DNA of 32,000 nucleotides from an uncultured archaeon (GCA_964373795.1 CAYJVY010000010.1:1-32000), one strand, 5' to 3'. Shown: positions 11,222-30,954, counted from the stretch's first letter. The notes: generated from the letters alone by a model not told the origin. Made by a program: numbers and translations.

Positions 11222-11749
11222 TTATTCTATTAACGCGTTTTTAATGTTTTCAGTGAATTTTATTATATTTGTTTTTCCAAGAGAGTCTTTTTCTATTACT
11301 CCTTTGTCTAATAGTTTTTGAATTACTCTATGGCTTTTAACTTTAGTCATTCCAGGCAGCCTAGTTATTTCTGCTTGAATTACTTTTCCTTTTGATTCAA
11401 TTAATTTGTCTAAAAGTTTTTTTTCATCTTGGTTTAAGAATTGCATTAAAATGTTAATGTTTTCTTTTAAGGATTTTTGTTTTGATTCAACTTTTTGACT
11501 CATTAAAAAGAATACTCCTGCTCCAACTAGTAATGAAATGCTTACAAGTAAAGGAATTAATGCATATAATGCATTTAATTGATTTTTATGAGGGCAGGCT
11601 CCGTCAGTAGTGCAAGACTCAATTATTGGCACTTCATTTTTTGGAGTTAAATAATCTGCTAAATGTAATACAGTGTAAAAGAATGATACAAGAATTATTA
11701 ATCCAATTATTAGTTTAGTGTTTTGATTCATAATAGGTTTTTCATGCAA
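11222..11749 (-). CDS. Membrane-tethered winged-helix regulator with a Cys/His-containing external loop
   Basis: Two TM helices bracket the loop ESCTTDGACPHKNQ. The C-terminal MarR/TrmB-like wHTH reads VIQAEITRLPGMTKVKSHRVIQKLLDKGVIEK. Confidence 0.7.
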   Translation of the reverse strand: MHEKPIMNQNTKLIIGLIILVSFFYTVLHLADYLTPKNEVPIIESCTTDGACPHKNQLNALYALIPLLVSISLLVGAGVFFLMSQKVESKQKSLKENINILMQFLNQDEKKLLDKLIESKGKVIQAEITRLPGMTKVKSHRVIQKLLDKGVIEKDSLGKTNIIKFTENIKNALIE

Positions 11750-11883
11750 AAAACATTTAATTCAAACCCTTTGCTTTAAAGCCTTTTTTTGGCCTGAAAA
11801 TGGTTTCATGAACTCCTATATATGGTTTCAAATCAAATCTATTTGGTTTTCCCCAAAAAAACCATTGAATGTAGTTGGGTTAA

Positions 11884-11910
11884 AGCGGAATGCAAGCATT
11901 CCGCTTGCAT
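11884..11910. promoter_or_regulatory. Two overlapping perfect inverted repeats upstream of module A
   Basis: agcggaatgc (11884-11893) pairs with gcattccgct (11896-11905). atgcaagc (11890-11897) pairs with gcttgcat (11903-11910). This is the GC-richest spot in the divergent intergenic region 11750-11933. Confidence 0.5.
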
Positions 11911-11933: not shown

Positions 11934-12740
11934 TTGAGTAAAGAAAATTCAAAAAATGAAGTTTTAAAAGAAGAATTAGAAGAAGGTTCAAAAAATTTTT
12001 CATTAACTAATTTTGTTTTAATTGGTTTAATGGGTTTAGTTTTACTTTTAACTGTCTTCAATCTTGTATCAATGTTTTTTGTTTCATCAAGCATTGTCAA
12101 ACAAAGTTCTGACATAACTGGTTTAATGTCTTTAGCTTCTCCAGCTAGTTCTAGTAATGCAGGAATTCAAATTTCCAACACTGCAAATCTTTCTCTTGAA
12201 GAAGTCTTGCCTGATGGCATTCCAAGAATTTATGGAGACAAACTTGGAGTTAATTTAAGTGATATTAGAGGAGAAGATCAAAAAAAAGCTGATGCAGTTG
12301 TTAAAAAACTTGCATCCCTTGATGGAGATTTATATCCTAATGGAGTAATGCATTTCAATGATTTAGATGAGCCAGCTAAAAAACGTTATTTATCTATTGG
12401 GACAAGCATTGCTTGCGAGTATTGTTGTGGAGTAGATGCATTGGTTTCAAGTAATGGCAAGCCCGCTTGTGGTTGTGCTCATTCTGCTGCAATGAGGGGA
12501 CTAGCAATGTATTTGTTGAAAAATTATCCAAATGATTTTACTAACGAGCAAATAGTTGAAGAACTGGGCAAACTGAAAGCATTGTTTTTCCCAAAAAATG
12601 CTTTACAAAAAGCAGTTGTTTTGAAGGAAAAATCAATTGAATTTAATTACGTTAACTTAATGTCAAACAAGTATATGGGAATTGAAAAGCAAAGCACTTC
12701 AACTTCAGTTGGAGGAGCTACTCAAGTAGGTGGATGTTAA
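11934..12740 (+). CDS. Membrane-anchored CxxCC...CGCAHS-domain protein with a C-terminal VGGC tail (module A, gene 1)
   Basis: TTG start with the SD aagaggt 7 nt upstream and a single N-terminal TM helix. The domain CEYCCG-x12-CGCAHS aligns with the C-terminus of ORF 21395..22840. It ends ATQVGGC*. Confidence 0.8.
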   Translation: MSKENSKNEVLKEELEEGSKNFSLTNFVLIGLMGLVLLLTVFNLVSMFFVSSSIVKQSSDITGLMSLASPASSSNAGIQISNTANLSLEEVLPDGIPRIYGDKLGVNLSDIRGEDQKKADAVVKKLASLDGDLYPNGVMHFNDLDEPAKKRYLSIGTSIACEYCCGVDALVSSNGKPACGCAHSAAMRGLAMYLLKNYPNDFTNEQIVEELGKLKALFFPKNALQKAVVLKEKSIEFNYVNLMSNKYMGIEKQSTSTSVGGATQVGGC

Positions 12741-12754
12741 AGGAGGTTTTTTAA

Positions 12755-13027
12755 ATGAGTGAAGAAGGTTTTGCAATAAATAAAAATATATTAATTGCAG
12801 TGTTTTTAGGGTTGGTTTTGATTGTTTCAATAGTGTTTTCAATCCAGTTAAGTTTTTTGAACAATTCTTTAGCTGAACAACAAGTGAAAATTAATCAATT
12901 AAAATCTAGTGCTACTGGATTAGTTGGTGGGGCGGCTGTTGCCTTGCCTGGTGTGCAAGCTTCAAGTGATCCAATGGCTGGTCATCATTCTGAAAGCTCT
13001 GCAGCTACTCAAGTAGGCGGTTGTTAA
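12755..13027 (+). CDS. Small membrane-anchored protein ending in ATQVGGC (module A, gene 2)
   Basis: SD AGGAGG, 90 aa, one TM helix, a low-complexity linker and a MAGHH motif. The last 24 nt are 22/24 identical to the end of the preceding gene. Confidence 0.75.
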   Translation: MSEEGFAINKNILIAVFLGLVLIVSIVFSIQLSFLNNSLAEQQVKINQLKSSATGLVGGAAVALPGVQASSDPMAGHHSESSAATQVGGC

Positions 13028-13040
13028 AAGGTGAATTTTT

Positions 13041-14282
13041 TTGTCAAAAAATGCTAAACAGGTTTCAGAAAATGTTTTAGATGATGAAAAAATTGTTTTC
13101 AAAATTAGTTCTGAGCTTGCAACAAAATTGTTAATGGTTTTGATTGCTTTTTTTCTTGCAACAAACCTTGTTTTAGCATTTTTTTTATTTTCCTCTATTC
13201 AAAATATTTCAAAGCAAACAAGTGAATTGTCTTTAGAATTTCGAGAAATAAATAAAGCCATTGAAAAACCAAAGCTTTACTTTACTTCGATAATTGATTC
13301 TTCTTGCATTGATTGTTTTAAAGTTTCAAGCATTATTTCTCAATTCAAGGCACAAAATGCCTTTGAAATTTCCGAGCAAATAATAGAGTTTTCTTCAATT
13401 GAAGCCCGGCAAAAAATTAAAGAACTTAAAATTAAATCAATTCCTGCAATAATCATTTCAGGAGATTTGAATAAAGCAAAACAAAATGCTTTTTTTTCTT
13501 CACTTATTAAATCAAACGAGTTTAAAGATTCAGTTGTTTTAAATAATTTTCAAGGAGTTTTTTTTGACTTGGATTCAAATTCTTTTAAGGGAAGAGTTAA
13601 ACAAATAAATCTTGTCAATAGTTCTTGCACTTTTTGTTCAGTTGTTCCAGGGAAAGCTTTTCTTGAAAAATTTGGAGTAAGTATTTCAAGTTTTTCAGAA
13701 ATTGATTTTAATTCAAGTGAAGGGCAAGCACTTATCTCAAAGTATTCAATTAAAAAAATTCCTTCAATGATTTTTTCTGAAGATTTAAAGTATTATCCTC
13801 AAATATTTACTAATTTAAAGACTATTTCTAGTTTAGAATCTGATAACAGTTTAGTGTTACGTGAAATTGTGCCTCCTTATTTTGACGCTGACTTGAATAA
13901 AGTAGCTGGATTGGTTTCATTGAAAATAGTTGACGTTAATTCTTGCATTGAATGTTTTGATGCCAACTTGTTTAACTCACTTTTTAAGCAAAACTTTGGG
14001 TTCAATTTTTCTGATGAAAACTTTTTTGATATTAATTCAGTTGAAGGGAAAAAACTTGTTTCAGATTACAATATTTCTGTTTTGCCTGCAGCAATTATTT
14101 TAGGAGAATTTGAATACTATTCTGATTTCAATAAATCTTTAGAGTTTTTTGGCTCAAAGGAAAAAGATAATTCTTTTGTTTTTAGAAACATTAATGTTTT
14201 TGGAAAACAATTCAAGTTTTTTGATTTGAATTCAAATACATTAATTGATTCATTGCCTGAGGAGGAAGCAATTAATGGCTGA
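13041..14282 (+). CDS. Membrane-anchored protein with three tandem thioredoxin/glutaredoxin-like CxxC repeats (module A, gene 3)
   Basis: It has an N-terminal TM helix. The CxxC motifs are SSCIDCF, SSCTFCS and NSCIECF. Each is followed about 45-50 aa later by a cis-Pro-like motif (IPAII, IPSMI, LPAAI). Confidence 0.8.
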   Translation: MSKNAKQVSENVLDDEKIVFKISSELATKLLMVLIAFFLATNLVLAFFLFSSIQNISKQTSELSLEFREINKAIEKPKLYFTSIIDSSCIDCFKVSSIISQFKAQNAFEISEQIIEFSSIEARQKIKELKIKSIPAIIISGDLNKAKQNAFFSSLIKSNEFKDSVVLNNFQGVFFDLDSNSFKGRVKQINLVNSSCTFCSVVPGKAFLEKFGVSISSFSEIDFNSSEGQALISKYSIKKIPSMIFSEDLKYYPQIFTNLKTISSLESDNSLVLREIVPPYFDADLNKVAGLVSLKIVDVNSCIECFDANLFNSLFKQNFGFNFSDENFFDINSVEGKKLVSDYNISVLPAAIILGEFEYYSDFNKSLEFFGSKEKDNSFVFRNINVFGKQFKFFDLNSNTLIDSLPEEEAING

Positions 14283-15057
14283 TGTTCCTTTTTGGGTTTC
14301 TTTTTTATTAGGAGTATTGGCTTTTCTTTCTCCTTGCATTATTCCAATGATTATTGTTTATTTAACTGCAATTACTGGTTTAAGTGTTGAAGAATTAGCT
14401 GGATTGCATAAAAGAACAGGACTTAGAAGGCATGTGTTGTTTTCTTCTATTGCTTTTGTTTTAGCTTTTTCTTTTGTATTTATTTTGCTTGGTGGAACAG
14501 CCGGTTTTATTGGGAATTTTTTTTCTCAAACAATTTCAAACTATTCTAAGTTAATGGAGTTAATTGGCGGGCTTTTCTTTATTTTGTTTGGCTTGCAGTT
14601 TTTAGGAGTTTTAATTAAATTCAATTTTTTGCAGGGTTTAAAGAACAAAATTCAAGAAAAAATTCCTTTAAGTTCTTTAAGAAATGAAAATGGCTTTCTA
14701 AATATTATCGGAATTTTCTTAATTGGATTGTTTTTTGCAATTGTTTGCAGTCATTGCTTTGGCTATGTTTTTTATCCCTTGCTTGTAACAACTGCTGCCA
14801 GTTCATCTGTTACTGTTGGATTACTTAATTTGTTTTTCTTTTCTTTTGGTTTAGGAATTCCTTTTATTTTAGTTGGATTGTTTTTTTCAGAGTCATTAAT
14901 TGTCTTAGAGTTTTTGAAACAACATTACAAACTTGTTTCAGTACTTGTAGGATTATTTTTAGTTTTTTATGGATTGATTTTAGTTTCTGGAAATTTTTTA
15001 ACAGTTCAAGGGTTTTTCTTGAACAATTTTCCAGATATATTAAAATTAGTTAAATGA
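14275..15057 (+). CDS. ccdA: CcdA/DsbD-family transmembrane thiol-disulfide electron transporter (module A, gene 4)
   Basis: LAFLSPCIIPMIIVYL and IVCSHCFGYVF lie in a polytopic membrane protein. The ATG at 14275 is preceded by GGAGG and overlaps the upstream stop (ATGGCTGA). Confidence 0.8.
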   Translation: MADVPFWVSFLLGVLAFLSPCIIPMIIVYLTAITGLSVEELAGLHKRTGLRRHVLFSSIAFVLAFSFVFILLGGTAGFIGNFFSQTISNYSKLMELIGGLFFILFGLQFLGVLIKFNFLQGLKNKIQEKIPLSSLRNENGFLNIIGIFLIGLFFAIVCSHCFGYVFYPLLVTTAASSSVTVGLLNLFFFSFGLGIPFILVGLFFSESLIVLEFLKQHYKLVSVLVGLFLVFYGLILVSGNFLTVQGFFLNNFPDILKLVK

Positions 15058-15075
15058 TTTTTTGGAGGCGAGAAA

Positions 15076-15240
15076 ATGTTTGGTTTTTTTGAAAAAAAAT
15101 GTGCAGAATGTGGAATGAAATTACAAGAATCTAAAGTTTCATTTAATGGAAAGGATTTTTGTTCTCAAGAGTGTAGTAAGAGTTTTGAAAAAAACTTGAA
15201 GAAAAAAGTTGATAAGGTTTCTAAAGGTTGTTGCCATTAA
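15076..15240 (+). CDS. Stand-alone TRASH/YHS-like zinc-ribbon protein ending in GCCH (not in the ORF track)
   Basis: SD ggaggcg, then MFGFFEKKCAECGMKLQESKVSFNGKDFCSQECSKSFEKNLKKKVDKVSKGCCH (54 aa). The arrangement is C-x2-C ... F-C-S-x2-C-x3-F. Confidence 0.65.
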   Translation: MFGFFEKKCAECGMKLQESKVSFNGKDFCSQECSKSFEKNLKKKVDKVSKGCCH

Positions 15241-15252
15241 TGGGGGGATTTA

Positions 15253-15507
15253 ATGAATAAAATTTTTTTATATGCGTTGGCTTTGATTGTATTGATTGTT
15301 TTATCTTTTAATGTTTTAAGTTTAGTTAATTTAATGAATTCTTCTCAAAAACTTGAATTTTCCAAGCCTTCTCAAGAAAATTTTTCTAAGGCAGTTGCTT
15401 TAGAGAATTCTTTAGATAAATGTAAAACCCCTGAAGGATATACTGATGAGCAATGGAAAGAACATATGGGGCATCACCCTGACAGGTATGCAGAGTGTTT
15501 GAAGTGA
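15253..15507 (+). CDS. Small membrane-anchored protein with a Cys/His-rich C-terminal domain
   Basis: N-terminal TM helix, then CKTPEGYTDEQWKEHMGHHPDRYAEC. Confidence 0.65.
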   Translation: MNKIFLYALALIVLIVLSFNVLSLVNLMNSSQKLEFSKPSQENFSKAVALENSLDKCKTPEGYTDEQWKEHMGHHPDRYAECLK

Positions 15508-15511
15508 TTAA

Positions 15512-16120
15512 ATGACTGAAGTTGGAACAATTTTTATTTCAAAAAAGCAATTAGTTTTTTTTGCAAAGATTTTCTTAGTTTTAGCAGTACTTTTGGCTGT
15601 TGGTTTTTCAGGGTTTTCTTTTTTTTCAATAAAGCAAGTGAATAATGATGTAACAGTTTTTGATAAAGGAATTGCTCCAAATTTTTCCTTGCCTAACTTG
15701 AATGGCGAGAAAATTTCTTTAAGTGATTTTAAAGGCAAGAAAAATGTTTTGCTTTTTTTTAATGAAGGCGCTGGATGTGGATCGTGTTTTCAGCAAATTC
15801 AAGACATGCAAGCAAGTCTTTCAGAATTTAATAAACTTGAAGTTGAAGTAATTCCTATTTCCACTAATTCTCCAAGTGTTTTGCGTTTGGAAGCGCAGTC
15901 AAGAAATATTTCTATGCCAATTTATTTTGACTCTGATTTAAGTGTTTCAAAAAAATTTACTGCTTTAAAGTATTCAATGCATCCAGGTAAAGTGCCAGGG
16001 CATACTTTTGTTTTGATTGGCAAGGATGGGGAAATTAAGTGGAGATGGGATTGGAAGTCTGGAAGCATGTATATTCAACCAACTGATTTATTGAATTATG
16101 TTAGAAATGCGTTAAAGTGA
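15512..16120 (+). CDS. Membrane-anchored thioredoxin-fold redoxin (AhpC/TSA-TlpA-like) with CGSC
   Basis: APNFSLPNLNGEKISLSDFKGKKNVLLFFNEGAGCGSCFQQ follows an N-terminal TM anchor. Confidence 0.8.
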   Translation: MTEVGTIFISKKQLVFFAKIFLVLAVLLAVGFSGFSFFSIKQVNNDVTVFDKGIAPNFSLPNLNGEKISLSDFKGKKNVLLFFNEGAGCGSCFQQIQDMQASLSEFNKLEVEVIPISTNSPSVLRLEAQSRNISMPIYFDSDLSVSKKFTALKYSMHPGKVPGHTFVLIGKDGEIKWRWDWKSGSMYIQPTDLLNYVRNALK

Positions 16121-16126
16121 TTTTTT

Positions 16127-16975
16127 ATGAGTGAAATTTTTTTTGGAGCATCATTAATTGTGGCTTTTCTTGCAGGAGTAATTGCATTGTTTGCTCCTTG
16201 TTGTATTAGTTTTATGTTTCCTTCATATTTTGCTCATACATTTAAGCAAAAATCCAGGCTTGTTTTAATGACTTTTATTTTTGCTTTAGGTGTTGCAACA
16301 ATTTTTCTCCCCTTAGGTTTGGGGTTGTCTTTTCTTGTACAGCAAATAACTGAGTATCATCAATTGCTTTACGTTATTGGAGGAGTGTTCATGATTTTTT
16401 TAGGTTATTTGTCTTTTCAAGGAAAAAGTCTTTCTCTTCCAATAAAAATTGGTAAAGTGGATTTCAAGAACAGTAATGCTTTATCTATTTATTCCCTTGG
16501 ATTGTTTTCAGGGGTTGCAACTACTTGTTGTGCTCCTGTATTGTTTGGCGCTTTAACTGTTACTGCTTTGGCTCCATCGCTTTTCCAAGCATTTTTTATT
16601 AGTCTAGCTTATGTTTTCGGAATTGTTTTTCCTTTATTTTTAATGGCTTTGTTTTACGATGCATTGAATTTGAAGGAAAATAAATTAATTCAAGGAAAGA
16701 TTTTGCATTTTAATTTTTTTAATGCAAAATTTGAAATTCATTCCTCTAATTTAATTGCCGGAGTAATGTTTTTGTTAATGGGTTTTATTTCTATTCTTGG
16801 AAGCAGTTATAGTGGAATGCAAGTAACAGAGCAGCAAATTCAAACAAAGATTCTTATAACAACTGTTAATGATTTTGTTCTTTCTTTGGTTAAACCAGTT
16901 CCAGACATTGTTTTAATTCTTGTTTTTATTGTTATTTTTTTGTTTTTTATTTGGAGAGCAAAAAAAGGTGGTTAA
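16127..16975 (+). CDS. DsbD_2/CcdA-like transmembrane thiol-disulfide transporter (second copy)
   Basis: LFAPCCISFMFPSYF and TTCCAPVLFGAL lie in a polytopic membrane protein directly downstream of the redoxin. Confidence 0.7.
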   Translation: MSEIFFGASLIVAFLAGVIALFAPCCISFMFPSYFAHTFKQKSRLVLMTFIFALGVATIFLPLGLGLSFLVQQITEYHQLLYVIGGVFMIFLGYLSFQGKSLSLPIKIGKVDFKNSNALSIYSLGLFSGVATTCCAPVLFGALTVTALAPSLFQAFFISLAYVFGIVFPLFLMALFYDALNLKENKLIQGKILHFNFFNAKFEIHSSNLIAGVMFLLMGFISILGSSYSGMQVTEQQIQTKILITTVNDFVLSLVKPVPDIVLILVFIVIFLFFIWRAKKGG

Positions 16976-17188
16976 ATGTTTAATGTTGTAAAAAACTTGT
17001 GGAATAAAATTAGAGAAGATCATTTAATTATGATGGCTGTTTGCTGTGTTCTTCCAATTATTTTTATTGGCGTATTATTTTTGCTTGGAATTAAAAATGA
17101 ATTGTTTTATTTATTGGCTTTAATTGTTTGCATTGGTTCGCATGCTTTTATGATGCTTGGTTCAAAGGAGGGAAAGAAATGTCACTAG
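16976..17188 (+). CDS. Small two-TM protein, DUF2933-like (tentative), ending KKCH
   Basis: HLIMMAVCCVLP ... LLALIVCIGSHAFMMLG resembles the DUF2933 pattern seen in metal-resistance loci. The start directly abuts the upstream stop. Confidence 0.55.
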   Translation: MFNVVKNLWNKIREDHLIMMAVCCVLPIIFIGVLFLLGIKNELFYLLALIVCIGSHAFMMLGSKEGKKCH

Positions 17189-17280
17189 ATTTTGGAAAAG
17201 CCAAAACAATTGTTAAGTATTTTGTTGTTGCAATAGTAATAGTTGTTTCATATTTTGTAATGATTAAGATAATGCATTAA
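17179..17280 (+). CDS. 33-aa single-TM micro-protein (not in the ORF track)
   Basis: SD aaggaggg lies 7 nt upstream. It reads MSLDFGKAKTIVKYFVVAIVIVVSYFVMIKIMH and overlaps the upstream stop. Confidence 0.4.
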   Translation: MSLDFGKAKTIVKYFVVAIVIVVSYFVMIKIMH

Positions 17281-17337
17281 ATAATTGAAGAGAAAAATAG
17301 TTTAATTTGAAAGTATTAACTTGTATGGAGGAATTTT

Positions 17338-17451
17338 ATGAAAAAAGGTTGTTGCAAGGAGAAGAAATCTTCATCTAAAGAACAAGAAGATTGTTGTAAA
17401 GAGGAAAAAGAGTCTTCCAATGAATCTGGGAAAAGGTGTTGTTGTGAATAA
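17338..17451 (+). CDS. 37-aa Cys-rich, Lys/Glu-rich peptide (metallothionein-like; not in the ORF track)
   Basis: SD ggagga is followed by ATG. It reads MKKGCCKEKKSSSKEQEDCCKEEKESSNESGKRCCCE, with CC, CC and CCC clusters. Confidence 0.55.
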   Translation: MKKGCCKEKKSSSKEQEDCCKEEKESSNESGKRCCCE

Positions 17452-17989
17452 TTTTTTTGATAAAGTAGGAAGGCAGTTACTTGTTTTATTTTTTTTACTG
17501 ATTTTTGGTTTGACTGTTTTTGCTCATTCAGCTGAAGACTTTGTAGAAGGAAAAAAATTAATTGAATCAAAGTTTGATTGCAAGGATTTAACTGAGGATC
17601 AACTTAAATTAATTGGAGCGTATTTAATGGAGCAAATGCATCCAGGGGAAGCGCATGAGTTAATGGATAAAGTAATGGGTTTAGAAAATGATCCAGTATA
17701 TGATAAAAAATTTCATGCAAGTTTAGCAAGAACCTTATATTGCAATGAATCAGGAGTAATGCCAATGATGGGTTTGCGTTCAATGATGGGGTTTAGTAAT
17801 AATGGTTCTGGAATGATGGGCAACCTTGGACAAGGATTTGGAATGATGAATTCAACTACTGGTTTTAATATGCCTTTTTTTGGTTACTTTAATTTGTTTA
17901 ACGTTCTTTATTTGATTTTATTAATTGGAATAATTGCATTGGTTTATTTTGGAGTTTTTAAACTTCTTAATTCTAAAAAGAAAAAGTGA
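17420..17989 (+). CDS. Secreted, C-terminally anchored Met-rich protein (putative Cu(I) binder)
   Basis: Signal-like LLVLFFLLIFGLTVFAHSAED. The Met-rich tract is MPMMGLRSMMGFSNNGSGMMGNLGQGFGMMNS. There is a C-terminal TM helix. The start is ambiguous (ATG 17420 or GTG 17444) and overlaps the Cys-rich micro-ORF. Confidence 0.7.
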   Translation: MNLGKGVVVNNFFDKVGRQLLVLFFLLIFGLTVFAHSAEDFVEGKKLIESKFDCKDLTEDQLKLIGAYLMEQMHPGEAHELMDKVMGLENDPVYDKKFHASLARTLYCNESGVMPMMGLRSMMGFSNNGSGMMGNLGQGFGMMNSTTGFNMPFFGYFNLFNVLYLILLIGIIALVYFGVFKLLNSKKKK

Positions 17990-17999
17990 GGTGTTTGAT

Positions 18000-18269
18000 G
18001 TGTGTGAAAAAATAGGTTTAAAGTCTAGTCTTTTATCTGGAGGATTAACTGGATTGGCTTTGTATTTGCTTTGCGGAGCATTAATTTATTTACTTCCAGG
18101 GATTGCAATGAATCTTTTCACTTCAATGATTCACAGCTCTATTGCTTTACAAGTAAAGCCTTTCGAATTTACTGCATTAGTTTTAGGGGCAATAGTTGCA
18201 TTTGCTGTTGGAGCATTCATTGCAGGGGCATTTGCTTTCTTCTACAACTCCCTTGGATCAAAAAAATAA
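18000..18269 (+). CDS. Small multi-pass membrane protein
   Basis: Hydrophobic helices include GLALYLLCGALIYLLPG and LVLGAIVAFAVGAFIAGAFAFF. The GTG at 18000 lies 7 nt after gaggtg. The ORF opens at 17934 inside the upstream gene. Confidence 0.55.
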   Translation: MCEKIGLKSSLLSGGLTGLALYLLCGALIYLLPGIAMNLFTSMIHSSIALQVKPFEFTALVLGAIVAFAVGAFIAGAFAFFYNSLGSKK

Positions 18270-18330: not shown

Positions 18331-18648
18331 ATGAATAAAGAGTTGCTTGAATTGCATGCTGGTTTGTGTAAAACCTTAGCTGATCCAAAGCGTTTAGAAT
18401 TGATTTACTTGCTTAGCAACAAGGAGAAATCTGTTTCTGAGTTAGTGAAATTGACTGGAATGCGTCAAGCTAATGTTTCACAGCACTTGGCTGTTTTAAA
18501 GCAGAAAAATATTGTTGCAAGCAGAAGAGAAGGTACACTGGTTTACTATTGTATTGCTTTTCCTAAAATGGTTAAAGCTTGCAATCTTATTAGAGAGGTT
18601 TTATTGCAGCAATCTGGCAAGAGAAAAAAAATATTGGAAAAGGAGTGA
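18331..18648 (+). CDS. ArsR/SmtB-family transcriptional repressor
   Basis: LADPKRLELIYLLSNKEKSVSELVKLTGMRQANVSQHLAVLKQKNIVASRREGTLVYY. Confidence 0.9.
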   Translation: MNKELLELHAGLCKTLADPKRLELIYLLSNKEKSVSELVKLTGMRQANVSQHLAVLKQKNIVASRREGTLVYYCIAFPKMVKACNLIREVLLQQSGKRKKILEKE

Positions 18649-18652
18649 TTTA

Positions 18653-18973
18653 ATGAAGATCGGAATTGTTCTTTCTTCTAGAGTTGAAGAGGTTGTGTGG
18701 AATGCTTTTCGTTTTGGTGTTCTTGCATTAAAATCAGGCCATGAAGTTAAAACCTTTTTAATCAATACAGGAGTTGAATTAGAAGAAATTTCCAGTGAAA
18801 AATTTAATGTCAATGAACAAGTAAATGGTTTTATTTCTTCTGGAGGAAAAATCTTGGCTTGTGGCACTTGTTTGAAGCACCGCGACAAAGAAGGAAGCAA
18901 TGTTTGCCCAATATCTACAATGAAGGACTTGCTTAAATTAGTTGAAGAATCAGACAGAATTCTTTCCTTTTGA
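18653..18973 (+). CDS. DsrE/DsrF-like family protein
   Basis: The ATG at 18653 follows the SD aggag. It reads MKIGIVLSS...VWNAFRFGVLALKSGHEVKTFLINTGVE...ILACGTCLKHR...DRILSF. The 5' part of track ORF 18512 is an out-of-gene extension. Confidence 0.75.
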   Translation: MKIGIVLSSRVEEVVWNAFRFGVLALKSGHEVKTFLINTGVELEEISSEKFNVNEQVNGFISSGGKILACGTCLKHRDKEGSNVCPISTMKDLLKLVEESDRILSF

Positions 18974-19201
18974 CTATTTGCAACAATTTTCTTTTTCCTT
19001 TTTGTTGTCTTTTTCTTCTATTTTGCATTCCTTGATTTCTTGAGCTAATATAATAATTGTTCCTATAACTAGCAGCAAACTTAGAATTCTAATTTCCCAT
19101 CCATTAAAGGGCAGAAAAGCAAGCTTCCAGTTAACCCAAGTAATGTAAGCAGTAAAGAACTGCTTATAGGGCAAGCAGAAGTAATTAATGTGCTTACTCA
19201 T
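18974..19201 (-). CDS. Small membrane protein ending in NCCK
   Basis: 75 aa with the TM helix ILSLLLVIGTIIILA and a charged tail EEKDNKKEKENCCK. No clear SD. Confidence 0.4.
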   Translation of the reverse strand: MSKHINYFCLPYKQFFTAYITWVNWKLAFLPFNGWEIRILSLLLVIGTIIILAQEIKECKIEEKDNKKEKENCCK

Positions 19202-19309: not shown

Positions 19310-19441
19310 TTAACTAAGTGCTTTTAGTAAAAGCTTCCGTGCTTGTGGTGATAAGTGCTTTAATTCTTTTGTACTGATGCAAATGCAGCAATCACATACA
19401 GGACAAATCCCTCCACTATAACACGGTTTTTTTGTTGTCAT
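19310..19441 (-). CDS. 43-aa Cys-rich peptide (not in the ORF track)
   Basis: SD GGAGG lies 6 nt upstream of the ATG (minus strand ttggaggaataatATG). It reads MTTKKPCYSGGICPVCDCCICISTKELKHLSPQARKLLLKALS, with six Cys in 16 residues. Confidence 0.5.
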   Translation of the reverse strand: MTTKKPCYSGGICPVCDCCICISTKELKHLSPQARKLLLKALS

Positions 19442-20147: not shown

Positions 20148-20906
20148 TTATACAGTAGATAGTTTTGAGTTGAGTTTGTTTAGCTTGTTTTTTGCAGTAT
20201 TTAAATGCTTTTCAGTTTTTTGTTTTCCTATTGCAAAATTGTCAGCGTTTTTTTCTTCTTGACTAAATAATGATTTCATTTCAGAGAACGCAAATATTGG
20301 GGAAATTTTTGTTAAAAAAAATCCCAAAGACTTTATTTTAGGGGTTTTTGTTTTTATGTGGTATACTTCATGCAATATCACTGATTCTAGTTCTTTTCTT
20401 GATAAAAGCTCTAACAAACCAACAGAAAAAAATATCTTTGCATGAATTGAAGTACTAGAAAACGCTTTTGGAGATATGTCATCTATTAAGAAGATTTTTG
20501 GCATTTTCATGCCTTCAATTCTTGTTATCTCTTTTATTTTTTCATACAAATCCCCTGAAACGACTTCAGTTGCTTTTAAAGAATACTGGTAAACAAGCGG
20601 GGCGACTATATAGCCTAAAATAATTGCCCCCAAAATTGAGACAGGTATTGCTGTCAAATAAGCTGAGGCCATGCATGCAAGAAATGAACCACACTTTAAT
20701 GAGAACAAAAAGTAAAGAACTGGGAACACTATTGCGAAAATGTGTGCGTAAATCCAAAAGGTTTTATTAGCTGTTTCTTTTTTCCTGATTTTCCAAAAGG
20801 ACACTCCTAAAAGTAGAAGAGATGTTCCAATTGTGAAAATCCCATCAATACTTGAAATGAATGCTGGAATGCATACAGTTGCCATACAAGTGAGATCGGT
20901 AAGCAT
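20148..20906 (-). CDS. Membrane M56/M48-type zinc metallopeptidase (BlaR1-like sensor-protease without a sensor domain)
   Basis: Several TM helices plus HEVYH (HExxH) in ESVILHEVYHIKTK. It lies directly downstream of a BlaI/CopY-like repressor. Confidence 0.75.
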   Translation of the reverse strand: MLTDLTCMATVCIPAFISSIDGIFTIGTSLLLLGVSFWKIRKKETANKTFWIYAHIFAIVFPVLYFLFSLKCGSFLACMASAYLTAIPVSILGAIILGYIVAPLVYQYSLKATEVVSGDLYEKIKEITRIEGMKMPKIFLIDDISPKAFSSTSIHAKIFFSVGLLELLSRKELESVILHEVYHIKTKTPKIKSLGFFLTKISPIFAFSEMKSLFSQEEKNADNFAIGKQKTEKHLNTAKNKLNKLNSKLSTV

Positions 20907-20909
20907 TTT

Positions 20910-21284
20910 TTAATCACTTTTTTCTCCAAATCTTTCATTAAAATATGCAATAGCTGTTGAACCAAATTTTTGAATCAATTTGTTGACACTTTTTTCTAAA
21001 ACCCTTTTTTCAAATTTTTCTGGACTGATTTTCAATACGTAAGCATATCTATAGCCACCTCTGCAGTTTTCGATCTCTCTTTCAGTGAGCCCTTTTTTAT
21101 GCAATCTATCCAAAAACACTGATACAGTAGTAGGGGAAACTATTTTTTTGTTCCTTTTAAGGGCTTGATGAATATCTTTAGAAATTGATTTACCTTTTTT
21201 TCCAAGTATATATAAAATAGCTAACTCCAAATCACTTAAAGCGTCTTTTAATTCATTCTTTATTATGAAACTCTCTCTAATCAT
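20910..21284 (-). CDS. BlaI/MecI/CopY-family transcriptional repressor
   Basis: LSDLELAILYILGKKGKSISKDIHQAL...TTVSVFLDRLHKKGLTEREI...YRYAYV. Confidence 0.8.
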   Translation of the reverse strand: MIRESFIIKNELKDALSDLELAILYILGKKGKSISKDIHQALKRNKKIVSPTTVSVFLDRLHKKGLTEREIENCRGGYRYAYVLKISPEKFEKRVLEKSVNKLIQKFGSTAIAYFNERFGEKSD

Positions 21285-21394: not shown

Positions 21395-22840
21395 ATGGTT
21401 GGAACAAAGTATTGCTCTATTTGCGGCCTAAAATCAAAAAAAGGCTTTGAAAAATTTGGTGAAGGCTTTTGCTCAAAAAAACATGCAAATGAATTTGTTC
21501 TACAAACCAGAAAACAAAAACTTGCAAAAGCAAATAGTGGGCAGTCAAGGAAAAAAAGTATTAGTGGTTTTAGTAATTTTTTTACGCCGCTAGAAAATTC
21601 TATCAACATTTTGTTAAACGAGAAATATGCCAAAACTTTTTTTGTAGCTTTTTCTATTAGCCTGATTTTTTTTAGTTTCCTGAATGGATTGTTTCTAATT
21701 CCTTTTCTTGAAATAGGTTTTGGTAGAATGGCAGAAGTAACAGTTTTTGACTACCTTTATTTGACATTTTCTTCCATACTAATAGCTGTCCTTGTCAGCT
21801 TATTTTTTTACCAGAGAAATGAGTTAACAAAAACCTTTGATTCTGGAAACCTGGTTGGAACTGGCTCAACTTCTTTGGCAGGATTTCTTGCAGCAATTTG
21901 CCCTGTATGTCAGTCAGTATCACTTGCAGCTTTTGGTGCAACTGTATTAGCTATTCCTTTAGGTCCACTCATTCCAGTTCTTGGCTTTTTAAAATTTTTT
22001 GGACTAGGCTTGCTAGGGTTAAGCGTTTACATTGTTTCCAATAATATTTATAAAAAAACCTGCACAGCTTGTGCCCCAGAGTCACTGCTTGTGGAAAAAA
22101 AATTAAGCAATTCTTTTCTTGAAGAATTCTTCTTGAAAAACAATTGGGGATTTTCTTTGCTAGTTGTTTTTGGAGTCATTCTAGTATTAAATCAGTTTCT
22201 TTTAACCAATGCTTTTTCAGGATTTGCTCCACAACCAGGAACTGCTGCATTCTTGACTGCTACTAATGCTATAACAGTTGACGCAAAAAGCGAGTTAAAT
22301 TATGGGGCAAAAATTACTATAAAGCCAATGCCTTTAGCCGTGAATGAGGCATCTGCAATAGCTGGATACAAAACAAAAGTAAAATCATTGCCTACAATTA
22401 GTGAAATCGAGGTTACTCCTTCTACAGGTGATCTAACCCAAGATATTGCTAACAATGTAATACCTAAAGGAAAACCTTGGTATAGTGAAGAGACTGGAGG
22501 AATTAGTTTTGATGACGCAATAAAGGCTCAACAGCTTTGGGCTAGAGGAAGAGCAATTCAATTGAGTCCTGAAGAGCAAAAAAGATGGGACAAAATTGTA
22601 AATTCTTTTACCTGTGATTATTGTTGTGGAAGTCCACAAAACCCCACAATTATTACAAGATGTGGTTGCGCTCATTCGTATGCAGCACAAGGAATGGCGA
22701 AATGGTTTATAAAAAATTATGGTGACAAGTTCTCTGATGAAGAAATATATGGTGAAATGGCTAGATGGTATGCTTTATGGTATCCAGGGCCAACTGTTAA
22801 AAGAATTGTCCAAGAAATCCAATCACAGTCAAACATTTAA
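21395..22840 (+). CDS. Fusion protein: TRASH-like zinc ribbon, CPxC polytopic membrane domain and CxxCC...CGCAHS domain (module B, gene 1)
   Basis: The N-terminus has CSICGLKSKKGFEKFGEGFCSKKH. The membrane part has FLAAICPVCQSV and is paralogous to ORF 27037..27462. The C-terminal CDYCCG-x11-CGCAHS aligns with ORF 11934..12740. Confidence 0.8.
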   Translation: MVGTKYCSICGLKSKKGFEKFGEGFCSKKHANEFVLQTRKQKLAKANSGQSRKKSISGFSNFFTPLENSINILLNEKYAKTFFVAFSISLIFFSFLNGLFLIPFLEIGFGRMAEVTVFDYLYLTFSSILIAVLVSLFFYQRNELTKTFDSGNLVGTGSTSLAGFLAAICPVCQSVSLAAFGATVLAIPLGPLIPVLGFLKFFGLGLLGLSVYIVSNNIYKKTCTACAPESLLVEKKLSNSFLEEFFLKNNWGFSLLVVFGVILVLNQFLLTNAFSGFAPQPGTAAFLTATNAITVDAKSELNYGAKITIKPMPLAVNEASAIAGYKTKVKSLPTISEIEVTPSTGDLTQDIANNVIPKGKPWYSEETGGISFDDAIKAQQLWARGRAIQLSPEEQKRWDKIVNSFTCDYCCGSPQNPTIITRCGCAHSYAAQGMAKWFIKNYGDKFSDEEIYGEMARWYALWYPGPTVKRIVQEIQSQSNI

Positions 22841-22877
22841 TTCTAAAAAATGGTAAATAAAAAGGAGGGATTAAGTA

Positions 22878-23108
22878 ATGGCTTTGAAAACAGTATTGCT
22901 AGGCGCCTTGCTAGTAGTAATGGTTATAGTAGGATTGTTGCAAACAGTTCAAATACTTAACCTTAGCACTGCATTGAATTCAGGTGTTGGCTTGGTTACA
23001 GCAAAACCTGCTTCAATTAGTGTGGCTGGTGCAACAGCAAACAGTATAAAATCTACTGGTTCTGCAACTAGTTTGGATAACCTGCCTGGCATGGTTGGCG
23101 GATGTTGA
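22878..23108 (+). CDS. Small membrane-anchored protein ending in PGMVGGC (module B, gene 2)
   Basis: SD ggaggg, 76 aa, one TM helix, a Ser/Thr/Ala-rich linker and the C-terminal VGGC*. Confidence 0.75.
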   Translation: MALKTVLLGALLVVMVIVGLLQTVQILNLSTALNSGVGLVTAKPASISVAGATANSIKSTGSATSLDNLPGMVGGC

Positions 23109-24514
23109 AAATTTTTCGGGAAAACACAATGCAGAAGAATTTACTTATTAGTGGCGCATTAATAGCCTTGCTTATAATTGTTTTGTTTAACTCTTTGCAA
23201 CTTACAGCTTTGGCTTCTCTAGCCAATGAAAAGACTGCAATAGCAAAAGAAAATTCGAGGCCTGGAAAAATTCAGTTAATAGAGTTGATTGTGCCATGCA
23301 GTGATTGCATAGGCATTGATTCATTATTAGTTGATTTAAAAAAGCAAAACCTTGAAGTAGTTTCTGAAAAAAGGCTTGCCTCTAATTTGCCAGAGGCACA
23401 AAATTTAATAAAAGAATTTGGTTTAACCAGGCTTCCAGCACTAATTGTTTTTGGTGAAACAACCAAGCAAAATCAGGTTAAAAGTTTTTTTGAAAAAAAT
23501 GGTTTTAAATTGAATGATTTAAATCAAGCGGTTTTTGAAACAAAAAAAGTGCCTTATTTTGATTTGAAAAATAATTCTGTTAGAGGAAGAGTATCAGTGG
23601 TTTCTTTGACTGCAAAAGATTGCAGTAATTGTAGCTCTTTTGCAACGCTATTACCCTTGCTGAGAAACCGCGGAATAGTTTTTGATGAAGAAAAATTCTT
23701 GGAATTTAATTCAAGTGAAGGAAAAGACTTTGTTCAAAAACATGGCTTGCAGAAAGTTCCAGCAATTTTTTTGTCAGAGAACATTCAAGAATACCCTGAA
23801 GTTTTTAATGCATTAATTAATCAGCTTGGTTTCAAGCAAGGAAAAGGATATATTTTTCGTGAACCGCTTAGCGCGCCCTTTGTTGATGCTTTAAGTGGTG
23901 AAACAAAAGGATTAGTTAAAGCTATTTTTTTGGATGACTCTTCTTGCAATGATTGCTATGATGTGAATATGCATAAACAGATTTTTGACAGGTTTAAATT
24001 ATTTTTAAATGAAGAAGAAACAGTGGAAGTTTCTAGCGAGAAAGGGCAACAATTGATTAGTGATTACAATATTAGCAGAATTCCAACTGTGTTGCTTTCA
24101 CCAGAAGCAAAAGAGTATCAAGAACTTGTGAATGTTTGGAGAGCTGTTGGAACAATTGAAGAGAATGATTGGTTTGTTTTTAGAGAGCCTAGTGCGTTAT
24201 CTGGAGTTTATATTGATTTGAATTTGAATTTAATTGTTAATCCAATACTTGTTCTTGGAGCAGAGTTTGAATTTCAGCCAAGCACAATTTCAGTTAAAAA
24301 AGGACAACTTGTTAAAATTACCTTTGTAAATGTTGGGCAAGCAGAGCATGATTTTGTAATTAATGAATTAAATATTAAAACAAAATTATTGAAACCTCAG
24401 GAAAGTGAAACAATTGAATTCATTGCAGATAAAACCGGAGAGTTTTCTTTTTATTGTTCAGTGGAAGGCCATAAAGAACAGGGAATGAAAGGAACAATCA
24501 TTATTTCGAAATAA
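23102..24514 (+). CDS. Membrane-anchored protein with three thioredoxin-like CxxC repeats fused to a type-1 copper cupredoxin domain (module B, gene 3)
   Basis: The CxxC motifs are VPCSDCI, KDCSNCS and SSCNDCY, with LPALI, VPAIF and IPTVL. The C-terminal cupredoxin ligands are H (AEHDF) and C-x4-H-x4-M (YCSVEGHKEQGM). The start is the ATG at 23102 (overlapping the upstream stop) or 23129. Confidence 0.85.
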   Translation: MLKIFRENTMQKNLLISGALIALLIIVLFNSLQLTALASLANEKTAIAKENSRPGKIQLIELIVPCSDCIGIDSLLVDLKKQNLEVVSEKRLASNLPEAQNLIKEFGLTRLPALIVFGETTKQNQVKSFFEKNGFKLNDLNQAVFETKKVPYFDLKNNSVRGRVSVVSLTAKDCSNCSSFATLLPLLRNRGIVFDEEKFLEFNSSEGKDFVQKHGLQKVPAIFLSENIQEYPEVFNALINQLGFKQGKGYIFREPLSAPFVDALSGETKGLVKAIFLDDSSCNDCYDVNMHKQIFDRFKLFLNEEETVEVSSEKGQQLISDYNISRIPTVLLSPEAKEYQELVNVWRAVGTIEENDWFVFREPSALSGVYIDLNLNLIVNPILVLGAEFEFQPSTISVKKGQLVKITFVNVGQAEHDFVINELNIKTKLLKPQESETIEFIADKTGEFSFYCSVEGHKEQGMKGTIIISK

Positions 24515-27498: not shown

Positions 27499-27821
27499 AT
27501 AAAGTTTGGAATTATAATTGGAACAATTGAACCTGAAGTGGTCTGGAATGTATTTAGATTTTGAGTTACATCATTAAAAGCAAATAATGAATAAAAATTT
27601 TTCTAATAAACAAAGGAGTTGAAATAGAAAGTATTCGAGATGAAAAATATAGTGTAAAAGAACAAATTGATTTATTCATTGAAAACAAAGGACAAATACT
27701 AGCTTGCGGAACATGTCTAAAGTCACGCAACAAAGAAGGAAGCAATATCTGCCCAATCTCAACAATGAAGGACTTGCTTAAATTAGTTGAAGAATCAGAC
27801 AGAATTCTAACATTTGATTGA
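27499..27821 (+). pseudogene. Disrupted DsrE-like gene (paralog of 18653..18973)
   Basis: It reads (ATA)KFGIIIGTIEPEVVWNVFRF*VTSLKANNE, then a shifted frame IKIFLINKGVEIES...ILACGTCLKSRNKEGSNICPISTMKDLLKLVEESDRILTFD*. The lesions are ATG to ATA at 27499, an in-frame TGA at 27562, and a 1-nt deletion creating TAA at 27592. The 47-nt stretch 27762-27808 is identical to 18917-18963. Confidence 0.8.
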
Positions 27822-30537: not shown

Positions 30538-30954
30538 TTAATGTTTTTTGAATGTTTTGGCACAGTATTTACAACAAAAATTTGTTTTCCTTCCCTTAAT
30601 TTTTTTTGTATAGCGACTTTCAAAAACTTTACAACCGCAATGGACACAAACAGTCAATCTTGGAGAAATACTTAATTCAATTAACTCTCCAAATCTCGAC
30701 AGAATTTTTTTAATAAACTTTTCTCCTTCTAAAGTTAATGAATAAACTTTTTTCTCTCTTTGCTTTTTTTCTTTTGAAACAATTAATTTATTTTTTTCAA
30801 GCAATGCAAGAAAAGGATATATTTGCCCCGGGGAAACTTTTTTCTCTGATTTTTCTGAAACTTTTTTAATTAATTCATATCCGTGCATAGATTTTGAGTT
30901 TAACAGCATTAGAGCATAAAATTTAGTTAAATTGTCTATTTTTATTTTATCCAT
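30538..30954 (-). CDS. PadR-family wHTH regulator fused to a C-terminal TRASH-like Cys module
   Basis: MHGYELIKKV...SPGQIYPFLALLEKNKLI...KVYSLTLEGEKF, followed by CVHCGCKVFESRYTKKIKGRKTNFCCKYCAKTF. Confidence 0.8.
   Translation of the reverse strand: MDKIKIDNLTKFYALMLLNSKSMHGYELIKKVSEKSEKKVSPGQIYPFLALLEKNKLIVSKEKKQREKKVYSLTLEGEKFIKKILSRFGELIELSISPRLTVCVHCGCKVFESRYTKKIKGRKTNFCCKYCAKTFKKH

Follow-up and report, generated by a model that had tools for sequence, protein, structure and literature searches.

A run of nine small co-directional genes at positions 15,076 to 18,269 of a 32,000-nt stretch of DNA from an uncultured archaeon (GCA_964373795.1, CAYJVY010000010.1:1-32000; about 30% G+C; the whole stretch is called the window below) is probably one lineage's arrangement of a modular island of DPANN archaea, in which soft-metal handling (most likely of Cu(I)) and envelope thiol-redox chemistry are combined. 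The gene families, the conserved residues and C-terminal tails, the gene neighbourhoods shared with Cu(I)-type CopA ATPases and regulators, and a conserved micro-gene are established; from these we infer the metal itself, the direction of electron and metal flow, the topology (including the compartment of each tail) and the operon structure. The thiol-redox side is supported by a redoxin and an adjoining DsbD_TM-type protein, a pair kept in two related loci (L021 and L034), together with an upstream CcdA and thioredoxin (Trx)-like protein; the copper link is supported by the CopA synteny, by TRASH/YHS, DUF2933 and cupredoxin families, and by an ArsR protein scoring above the metalloregulator cutoff. 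The sequence-only reading of this stretch had labelled it a thiol/metal array with Cys-containing tails, and that label survived our tests, with thiol-redox and metal-type families lying side by side and the tails conserved in homologues.

The array is one permutation of a DPANN-wide gene pool

Through the family of the array's Met-rich protein, 80 genomic loci (numbered with the prefix L) were retrieved and all of their neighbouring open reading frames (ORFs) were clustered. The loci bear labels of Woese-, Pace-, Aenigm-, Micr- and Iainarchaeota, with two candidate phyla radiation (CPR) bins and several Methanosarcinales or Hadarchaeota bins. Recurring across them in variable order were the YHS mini-protein, the HMGHHP protein, the DUF2933-like and DUF5676 proteins, the redoxin with its CC-type CcdA, the CEYCCG protein, VGGC-tail and Trx-repeat proteins, DsrE, and a BlaI/M48 pair. 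The Micrarchaeota loci L022 and L087/L088 hold HMGHHP-like, DUF2933-like, micro-peptide, DUF2933-like and DUF5676 genes in a single run, to which L087/L088 add a YHS gene. As the families recur shuffled, the window array is one permutation of a DPANN-wide gene pool.

The best-established anchor of this pool, as judged from gene content, appears to be copper export. In 27 of the 80 loci the Met-rich gene has a P-type ATPase no more than 6 kb away, and 24 of the 26 neighbouring ATPases of at least 550 aa bear the signature of Cu(I) P1B-1 pumps, CPC / YN(x)4P / M(x)2SS. The Met-rich gene is preceded by a metal-type regulator in more than 40 loci; ArsR is found within 6 kb of it in 39 (on the same strand and no more than 700 nt upstream in 30), and a divergent PadR with a TRASH-type C-terminus precedes it in 12. 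TRASH is a copper-sensing and chaperone domain of archaeal cop clusters (PMC7830388), and DUF2933 sits in bacterial MerR-CopA-cupredoxin-DUF2933 clusters (PMC8478169).

Layout of the array

Every ORF listed in the sequence-only reading was found at its position on the plus strand (Table 1), and the widest gap measured 57 nt as claimed, at 17281-17337 between the 33-aa and 37-aa ORFs. Its count of eleven genes for 15076-18269 has to be corrected to nine, eleven being reached only if ArsR and DsrE, both past 18269, are added. Six of the nine ORFs start with ATG and two more (Met-rich and DUF5676) probably with GTG, while the ATG of the 33-aa ORF is internal to a longer TTG-initiated ORF. The co-directional array proposed for 11934-18269 was borne out and actually extends to 18973, giving, with the four upstream genes, ArsR and DsrE, a run of 15 genes over 7.0 kb. 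The count of at least eight proteins whose Cys are terminal or clustered, asserted for about 8 kb, was likewise confirmed. The three public contigs bearing the array are 100% identical to the window, so they supply no strain variation by which the micro-ORFs could be judged.

Table 1. Features of the array and its surroundings, with the gap from each array ORF to the next (negative, overlap; TM, transmembrane; SD, Shine-Dalgarno sequence)
Feature	Positions	Strand	Length (aa)	Gap (nt)	Remarks
Upstream co-directional module	11934-15057	+			four genes
(M/Q)VGGC tails in the window	12726-12740, 13013-13027, 23094-23108				also in L003, L015, L025, L037, L042, L045, L048, L051, L056, L061, L062, L065, L066, L074
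YHS/TRASH-type mini-protein, predicted cytosolic	15076-15240	+	54	12	C-x2-C-x16-C-x3-C, Lys-rich linker, GCCH C-terminus
HMGHHP protein, no family	15253-15507	+	84	4	N-terminal TM anchor, small domain predicted extracytoplasmic
AhpC/TSA-fold thiol-disulfide oxidoreductase (redoxin)	15512-16120	+	202	6	CGSC site; ResA/TlpA-like architecture, membrane-anchored
CcdA/DsbD_TM-type membrane protein	16127-16975	+	282	0	vicinal CC: APCC in TM1, TCCAP in TM4
Divergent DUF2933-like protein	16976-17188	+	70	-10	two hydrophobic stretches, KKCH C-terminus
Single-TM micro-protein	17179-17280	+	33	57	ends KIMH; SD AAGGAGGG; 10-nt overlap with DUF2933-like gene
Lys/Glu/Ser-rich ORF	17338-17451	+	37	-8	7 Cys (CC, CC, CCC); SD GGAGG 6 nt upstream
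Met/His-rich protein, predicted extracytoplasmic	17420-17989	+	189 from 17420	10	signal peptide, four-helix domain, Met/Gly-rich linker, C-terminal TM anchor
DUF5676 membrane protein	18000-18269	+	89		2 TM; GTG start
Perfect 13-nt inverted repeat TTTATTCATATAT/ATATATGAATAAA	18310-18339				spans arsR start codon; candidate ArsR operator
ArsR/SmtB-family metalloregulator	18331-18648	+	105		His9 and Cys13 conserved (HAxxCK)
DsrE-like protein	18653-18973	+	106		CGTC motif; DsrE 1.5e-7
TM protein with NCCK tail	18974-19201	-	75		weak match to a larger membrane family, 33% over 42 aa
CPVCDCCIC peptide	19310-19441	-	43		62% identical homologue in L056

The redoxin and its vicinal-cysteine CcdA

The redoxin matched the Pfam families AhpC-TSA (4.8e-23, 81.9 bits, cutoff 26) and Redoxin (5.5e-13, 49.4 bits, cutoff 26.6) and failed at the equivalog level of NCBIfam (ResA 1.3e-13, 51.3 bits against a cutoff of 170; Bcp 53.4 against 140). 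Its CGSC site occupies residues 88-91. A crude hydropathy scan, from which TM segments and topology were taken throughout, gave a single N-terminal TM segment, an anchor that would place the redoxin domain outside the membrane. The membrane protein encoded next to it is marginally over the gathering cutoff of Pfam DsbD_TM (28.7 bits against 27.1; a precomputed call on an identical contig was graded "weak") and has about seven hydrophobic segments. Both CcdA signature Cys positions are filled and each is doubled, a variant of the canonical single Cys in TM1 and TM4. The motifs APCC and (T/L)CCAPVL are kept in its homologues in L021 and L034 (38-39% identity), and in each of these loci a redoxin homologue adjoins the CC-type CcdA, making the redoxin by conserved adjacency its putative Trx-fold partner. 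In the redoxin homologue of L021 (7598-8470) the AhpC/TSA domain is fused to an N-terminal Cys-cluster domain (CACCG...CCG), and this fusion points to a functional tie between Cys-cluster proteins and the redoxin.

Two CcdA-type proteins, the redoxin and the Trx-repeat proteins make up most of the array's length, an HxlR-type regulator of redox style adjoins it, and a metal pump was not found in the window; these observations would suit a general extracytoplasmic thiol-disulfide maintenance or oxidative-stress system of an anaerobic episymbiont, in which the Cys, Met and His motifs are redox or structural. We regard this as possible but doubtful, as it leaves unexplained the recurrent context of CopA, TRASH, YHS, DUF2933 and cupredoxin, the Met-rich repeats and the strictly conserved His and Met residues, and as the CGSC of the redoxin is a CxxC site, unlike the peroxidatic-Cys motif of peroxiredoxins.

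Metal-type families of the array

The 54-aa mini-protein, in which the hydropathy scan gave no TM segment, matched Pfam YHS below the gathering cutoff (E 3.4e-4, 21 bits against 30.3). Because YHS is matched by six of the eight aligned members of its family (best 1.4e-17), it is by transitivity a divergent YHS member. Its Cys signature (C9-x2-C12-x16-C29-x3-C33) fits the TRASH/YHS type, with CGM kept and a spacer shorter than the x(19-22) of classical TRASH; C12, G13, M14, C29 and C33 are invariant in the alignment, and the homologues end in GCCH, GCCP, GCC, GCCCCH, SCCGN or RSCC. It is a candidate Cu(I) chaperone of the CopM type.

The 84-aa protein that follows matched no family in Pfam or NCBIfam. 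It has one TM segment by hydropathy and the motif C-x2-P-x-G-x5-W-x-E-H-M-G-H-H-P-x6-C-L, and ten homologues in DPANN loci retain the N-terminal anchor, both Cys and EH(M/L)(G/S)HH. An unnamed membrane family with a CCAHH motif (L022 1706-2320, L021 11599-12441 and 19 further loci; MVACCAHHIADIAPFLG), absent from the window, is among the commonest members of the island (21 loci); its motif looks invariant and its gene mostly sits immediately before the HMGHHP gene.

The designation "DUF2933-like" given earlier to the 70-aa protein fails on a direct Pfam match (none at E<=0.1) and holds through the homologue L046_6033, clustered with it by blastp, which reaches DUF2933 at 30 bits against a cutoff of 21. 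The size of about 60-100 aa, the two TM helices and the copper-gene linkage typical of DUF2933 are all found, the homologues lying in copper-type neighbourhoods; hydropathy gave one TM segment in the window protein and the second hydrophobic stretch was read off the alignment. In that alignment (A2, eight sequences) H16, M20, C23-C24 in the first stretch, C52 in the second, M59 and C69-H70 are invariant, and (K/S)CH occurs in all eight sequences, at the exact C-terminus in six. A metagenome scan with a two-sequence DUF2933-like alignment returned three loci only.

The 33-aa micro-gene starts inside the DUF2933-like gene, its ATG and that gene's Cys-His-stop falling in a shared 10 nt (ATGTCACTAG). 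The same overlap (ATGCCACTAA or ATGCCACTGA; ATGYCACTRR, with the ATG over the Cys codon) is repeated in L022, L084/85, L086 and L087/88, and so recurs in Micrarchaeota; there it opens a homologous single-TM peptide of 39-46 aa ending KAMHP, which shares K-x-M-H(P) with the window copy. The pN/pS ratio was 0.33-0.36 in the micro-gene frame against 0.47-1.7 in the other two frames, and the L022 copy is annotated at NCBI. The conserved overlap, the motif, the pN/pS values and the annotated copy together indicate that the 33-aa ORF is a genuine gene.

The CcdA-like and DUF2933-like proteins, with vicinal CC in TM helices, and the Cys-bearing C-terminal tails also recall mercury proteins, MerT and MerF having CC pairs and MerA a C-terminal CC. 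An uptake or relay system analogous to MerT/MerF/MerC, with a different thiophilic metal (Hg(II), Ag(I) or Cd(II), for example) as its substrate, is nevertheless improbable: none of the nine array genes matched a Pfam Mer family at E<=0.1, no MerA or MerB match was found among the other window ORFs scanned, and the associated ATPases bear a Cu(I)/Ag(I) rather than a Zn/Cd/Pb signature.

The Met/His-rich protein belongs to a family with 596 homologues at E<=0.001, the named ones being from DPANN and all "hypothetical". Its true start is probably GTG 17444, which is preceded by AAGGTG and agrees with the starts of homologues. Read before as secreted, it does carry a signal peptide and is predicted to be extracytoplasmic, but a C-terminal TM anchor is present as well. 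C54, C108, H74, H79 and H99, along with Met residues, are invariant in its four-helix domain (alignment A1; motif MEQMHPGEAHELM), and the protein includes a MEQMHPGEAH domain and MMG repeats. An AlphaFold2 (AF2) model had a pLDDT of about 90 over residues 40-110; a PDB sequence search and Foldseek with this model gave only chance-level matches for the domain, and a Pfam scan of 30 family members gave no real match, only compositional ones to DUF3671.

The last protein of the array exceeds the gathering cutoff of Pfam DUF5676 (9.2e-9, 36.5 bits against 27.6) and has two TM segments. The start assigned by the public gene caller corresponds to window position 18000, and the family was found in 11 of the 80 loci. 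No paper on DUF5676 or on an MVGGC protein tail was found in the literature searched.

Paralogous modules and C-terminal cysteine tails

The module upstream of the array comprises two TM-anchored proteins with a QVGGC end (a CEYCCG..CGCAHS protein of 268 aa and another of 90 aa), a Trx-like repeat protein of 413 aa and a canonical CcdA (DsbD_TM 1.6e-16). The term "PCYCGC-like" for the 268-aa protein is a mnemonic only, membership being unsupported by Pfam or NCBIfam. A third paralogous module lies at 21395-24514 (+). Its 481-aa protein fell into one cluster with the CEYCCG protein of 268 aa, and it also encodes a TM protein of 76 aa with a GMVGGC end (22878-23108) and a 470-aa fusion of Trx-like and C-terminal cupredoxin domains (23102-24514, +). 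The window thus has three modules of Cys-motif protein, VGGC tail and Trx-fold protein.

A Cys within the last five residues was found in 7 of the 22 ORFs between 11.9 and 24.6 kb and in none of the 23 elsewhere in the window (Fisher p=0.004; region picked post hoc). Across 1273 neighbourhood ORFs terminal Cys was at chance (7.3% observed, 7.2% expected from composition). The terminal Cys noticed from the sequence alone are real, and the tails are family-specific: (M/Q)VGGC in three unrelated families, DCCKE/CCKEW, CCKxW, GCC(H/P)/SCC in the YHS family and (K/S)CH in the DUF2933-like family. An exact C-terminal (M/Q)VGGC ends 35 of the 45 members of the three unrelated families, all extracytoplasmic, across DPANN phyla. 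The tails are a lineage-wide trait because they are conserved in homologues from other phyla, which is weightier than the Fisher test, and the strict identity of (M/Q)VGGC on unrelated proteins makes a signal for recognition or processing look likelier than a simple ligand.

Cysteine-rich micro-ORFs

The 37-aa ORF overlaps the probable GTG start of the Met-rich gene by 8 nt (GTGAATAA). Its codon score of 0.35 is inside the range of genes, with that of frame +1 nearly as high, and it encodes neither hydrophobic segments nor His. An exhaustive HMMER search of 1.84e9 representative proteins returned no homologue, nor was one found in 86 related loci. It had no match in Pfam or NCBIfam, and a composition scan of all loci for Cys-rich small ORFs yielded no analogue, the matches being mostly antisense artefacts of the MEQMHPGE motif. 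By composition it is an unverified candidate for a metallothionein-like peptide. That standard annotation misses the micro-ORFs was correct for the 33-aa ORF, never called by the gene annotation of the public contigs, and incorrect for the 54-aa ORF, already in public protein sets, and for the 37-aa ORF, called as a gene on one of the three identical public contigs. Both minus-strand neighbours, the 75-aa NCCK and 43-aa CPVCDCCIC ORFs, are in public protein sets.

Short, Cys-dense ORFs in a metal context, one of them (43 aa) conserved in L056, could suggest precursors of ribosomally synthesised and post-translationally modified peptides (RiPPs), for example copper-binding ones, matured by neighbouring enzymes. 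We consider this very improbable for the 37-aa and 43-aa ORFs; the former is without relatives, and the reading was rejected as the window ORFs scanned included none for radical-SAM (S-adenosylmethionine), MNIO/DUF692, YcaO or LanB/C/M enzymes or for peptidase-transporters.

ArsR and DsrE downstream of the array

The ArsR protein was above cutoff for both Pfam HTH_5 (4.9e-15, 55.6 bits, cutoff 22) and NCBIfam HTH_metalloreg (83.3 bits, cutoff 55). Among the 30 homologues encoded on the same strand and within 700 nt upstream of a Met-rich gene, His9 and Cys13 are the only residues conserved outside the DNA-reading helix, and no known ArsR metal-site type (alpha3N CxC, alpha5 His/Asp and others) was matched, an ELCVCDL-type CxC being absent. 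The 16-nt core of the inverted repeat at arsR has one zero-mismatch occurrence in the window, and no comparable copy was found upstream of the array.

Homologues of DsrE (44-71% identity) are present in 18 loci, mainly downstream of ArsR-MetRich, where DsrE is the usual last gene of the operon in other DPANN genomes. An operon of ArsR, Met-rich, SAM methyltransferase, DUF302 and DsrE genes recurs in L007, L012, L039, L059, L070 and others. A second DsrE-like copy in the window (27499-27815, +) is a pseudogene with two in-frame stops and a frameshift in its N-terminal third; over the C-terminal 72 aa it shares 74% identity with the gene at 18653-18973.

These genes raise the alternative of reactive-sulfur (sulfide, persulfide, sulfite) or metalloid detoxification, with an ArsR of the BigR/SqrR kind sensing persulfidation and DsrE, DUF302 and the methyltransferase processing sulfur or metalloid species. 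No other gene of the ArsR-MetRich operon is as well conserved as DsrE (homologues up to 71% identical to the window copy), DUF302 and the methyltransferase are recurrent, and the window ArsR has a sub-threshold BigR match (6.9e-15, 54.9 bits against a cutoff of 155). BigR and SqrR, however, use two conserved Cys, and the subfamily of the window ArsR conserves just Cys13, with His9. The 30 largest neighbour clusters included no persulfide dioxygenase, rhodanese, SQR, ArsB/Acr3 or ArsC, and the copper-type context of the other families would go unexplained, so we give this alternative only a small chance.

A proposed copper and thiol island

On the preferred reading of a soft-metal and thiol-redox island, CcdA/DsbD-type proteins would export reducing equivalents to anchored Trx-fold proteins, namely the CGSC redoxin and, both upstream and downstream of the array, Trx-repeat proteins; these, once reduced, would keep the extracytoplasmic Cys sites of the CEYCCG..(M/Q)VGGC, small VGGC-tail and HMGHHP proteins reduced. 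Binding and buffering of Cu(I) at the cell surface would fall to the anchored Met/His-rich protein (MEQMHPGEAH domain, MMG repeats), and its chelation in the cytosol to the YHS/TRASH mini-protein and its flexible GCCH tail, perhaps joined by the 37-aa CC/CC/CCC peptide. The two-TM DUF2933-like protein, whose putative ligands are the CC and the C of its first and second hydrophobic stretches and the KCH tail, may form a small metal relay in the membrane together with the 33-aa single-TM protein (ending MH) to which it is translationally coupled. Where related loci hold a CopA ATPase, these chelating and relay elements would feed or assist it, and metal-type regulators, here ArsR/SmtB with its conserved His9/Cys13, would govern expression.

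Several points weigh against this proposal. No CopA ATPase or HMA-domain protein was found in the 32-kb window; metal binding is predicted from motifs, and Cu, Ag, Hg, Cd and Zn are indistinguishable from sequence. The association of ArsR, DUF302, DsrE and methyltransferase could equally mean sulfur or metalloid chemistry. As no structural relative of the Met-rich protein was found, its role is drawn from composition and context, and the topology is taken solely from crude hydropathy. With the palindrome lying solely at arsR, control of the upstream array by this ArsR is conjectural, and the 37-aa peptide may be untranslated.

Among the nearest known counterparts is the archaeal cop cluster of Saccharolobus, Pyrococcus and Thermococcus (CopR/CopT regulator, CopM/CopT metallochaperone and CopA), which resembles the related DPANN loci in having a small TRASH/YHS-type Cys protein and TRASH regulators beside Cu(I) P1B-1 ATPases (PMC7830388), and to which the PadR with a TRASH-like tail at 30538-30954 of the window also corresponds. 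In contrast to that cluster, the window is without CopA (held by 27 of the 80 related loci), its mini-protein has an extra conserved C-terminal CC tail and its array-adjacent regulator is of the ArsR/SmtB type; the classical three-gene cluster in turn is without the Met-rich, HMGHHP, VGGC-tail, DUF5676 and micro-TM peptide families of the DPANN island. Bacterial MerR-CopA-cupredoxin-DUF2933-ICMT clusters (Alteromonas, Vibrio, CHASRI region) likewise link a two-TM DUF2933 mini-protein to a copper ATPase and cupredoxin (PMC8478169; PMC12582456), the latter paralleled in the window by the cupredoxin fusion. The window protein differs in being too divergent for a direct match, in its conserved KCH end and in its coupled TM peptide (33-46 aa), and no isoprenylcysteine carboxyl methyltransferase (ICMT) was found in the window or the scanned neighbour families.

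The pairing of a DsbD-superfamily protein with an anchored Trx-fold CxxC protein is shared with CcdA/DsbD and ResA/TlpA systems. ScsABCD (suppressor of copper sensitivity) of Salmonella and Proteus has a comparable pairing in a copper-tolerance context. Unlike both, the array has a CcdA doubled to CC at both sites, an AhpC/TSA-fold redoxin with CGSC and no cytochrome c maturation genes; the array proteins had no ScsB/C/D match in NCBIfam, so they are not orthologues. Functional analogy extends to Met-rich copper binders (PcoE/SilE, CusF, the inserts of CueO/PcoA/CopA oxidases, the Mets motifs of Ctr1) and to the HCH tail of human CTR1, which the array would resemble in placing Met/His-rich motifs and MMG repeats outside and Cys/His at the extreme C-terminus of membrane proteins; there is no kinship of sequence or fold, and the window protein has a C-terminal TM anchor, a distinct four-helix domain and an invariant Cys pair. 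The 37-aa ORF shares with bacterial metallothioneins (SmtA/BmtA, MymT) its shortness, its Cys pairs (7 of 37 residues), its want of hydrophobic segments and its metal context, and differs from them in being without His and without any homologue.

A bolder extension, which we put forward as speculation and think rather unlikely as a whole, is that DPANN archaea own a so far undescribed copper/thiol trafficking network in which short C-terminal Cys tails form a shared code. The (M/Q)VGGC-COOH end would be a recognition or handover signal (for a co-encoded Trx/DsbD-type partner, or for terminal-Cys modification), the cytosolic GCC(H/P), DCCKE and KCH tails would be Cu(I) swinging arms, the DUF2933-like protein with its 33-46-aa peptide would be a minimal membrane metal conduit, and the 37-aa ORF would be the first archaeal metallothionein-like peptide.

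Systems that combine copper homeostasis and DsbD/Trx chemistry are known, and the DPANN version consists largely of unnamed families (the Met-rich anchored, HMGHHP and VGGC-tail proteins and the micro-TM peptide). Judged by titles, a search on DPANN and copper gave no paper on such an island, which has apparently not been described so far. The genomes of DPANN archaea, ultrasmall episymbionts that are mostly uncultured, are reduced; even so, about 13 kb of the 32-kb window, spread over three paralogous modules, go to surface thiol/metal chemistry, with families recurring in Woese-, Pace-, Micr-, Iain- and Aenigmarchaeota bins. If the proposal is true, several widespread "hypothetical" families would gain a functional label, unrelated families would be seen to converge on C-terminal Cys tails as metal or recognition devices, an overlapping micro-gene that some gene callers overlook would be validated, and small soluble or 1-2-TM proteins would become targets for heterologous biochemistry on unculturable organisms.

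Other regulators and features of the window

A tRNA scan and an Rfam scan of the window gave no matches. An 888-aa ORF at 3278-5944 (+) matched no Pfam family at E<=0.001 and lies between archaeal ATPases of the ATPase_2/DUF234 and AAA_14/DUF4143 types. The regulator encoded at 30538-30954 (-), a PadR-family protein whose Cys tail is TRASH-like (CVHCGC...FCCKYCAKTFKKH), is of the same type as the divergent PadR upstream of the Met-rich gene in 12 other loci. A BlaI/CopY-type repressor (Penicillinase_R) and an M48/M56 membrane protease form a pair at 20148-21284 (-), and a BlaI/M48 pair also occurs near Met-rich genes in L036, L051 and L063. A perfect 11-nt inverted repeat (AAGCGGAATGC/GCATTCCGCTT) at 11883-11906, a candidate operator, lies in the divergent intergenic region between the gene for a TM-anchored DUF7343 helix-turn-helix (HTH) protein (11222-11749, -) and the first array gene (11934), and this pairing of HTH and CEYCCG genes is recurrent in many of the 80 loci.

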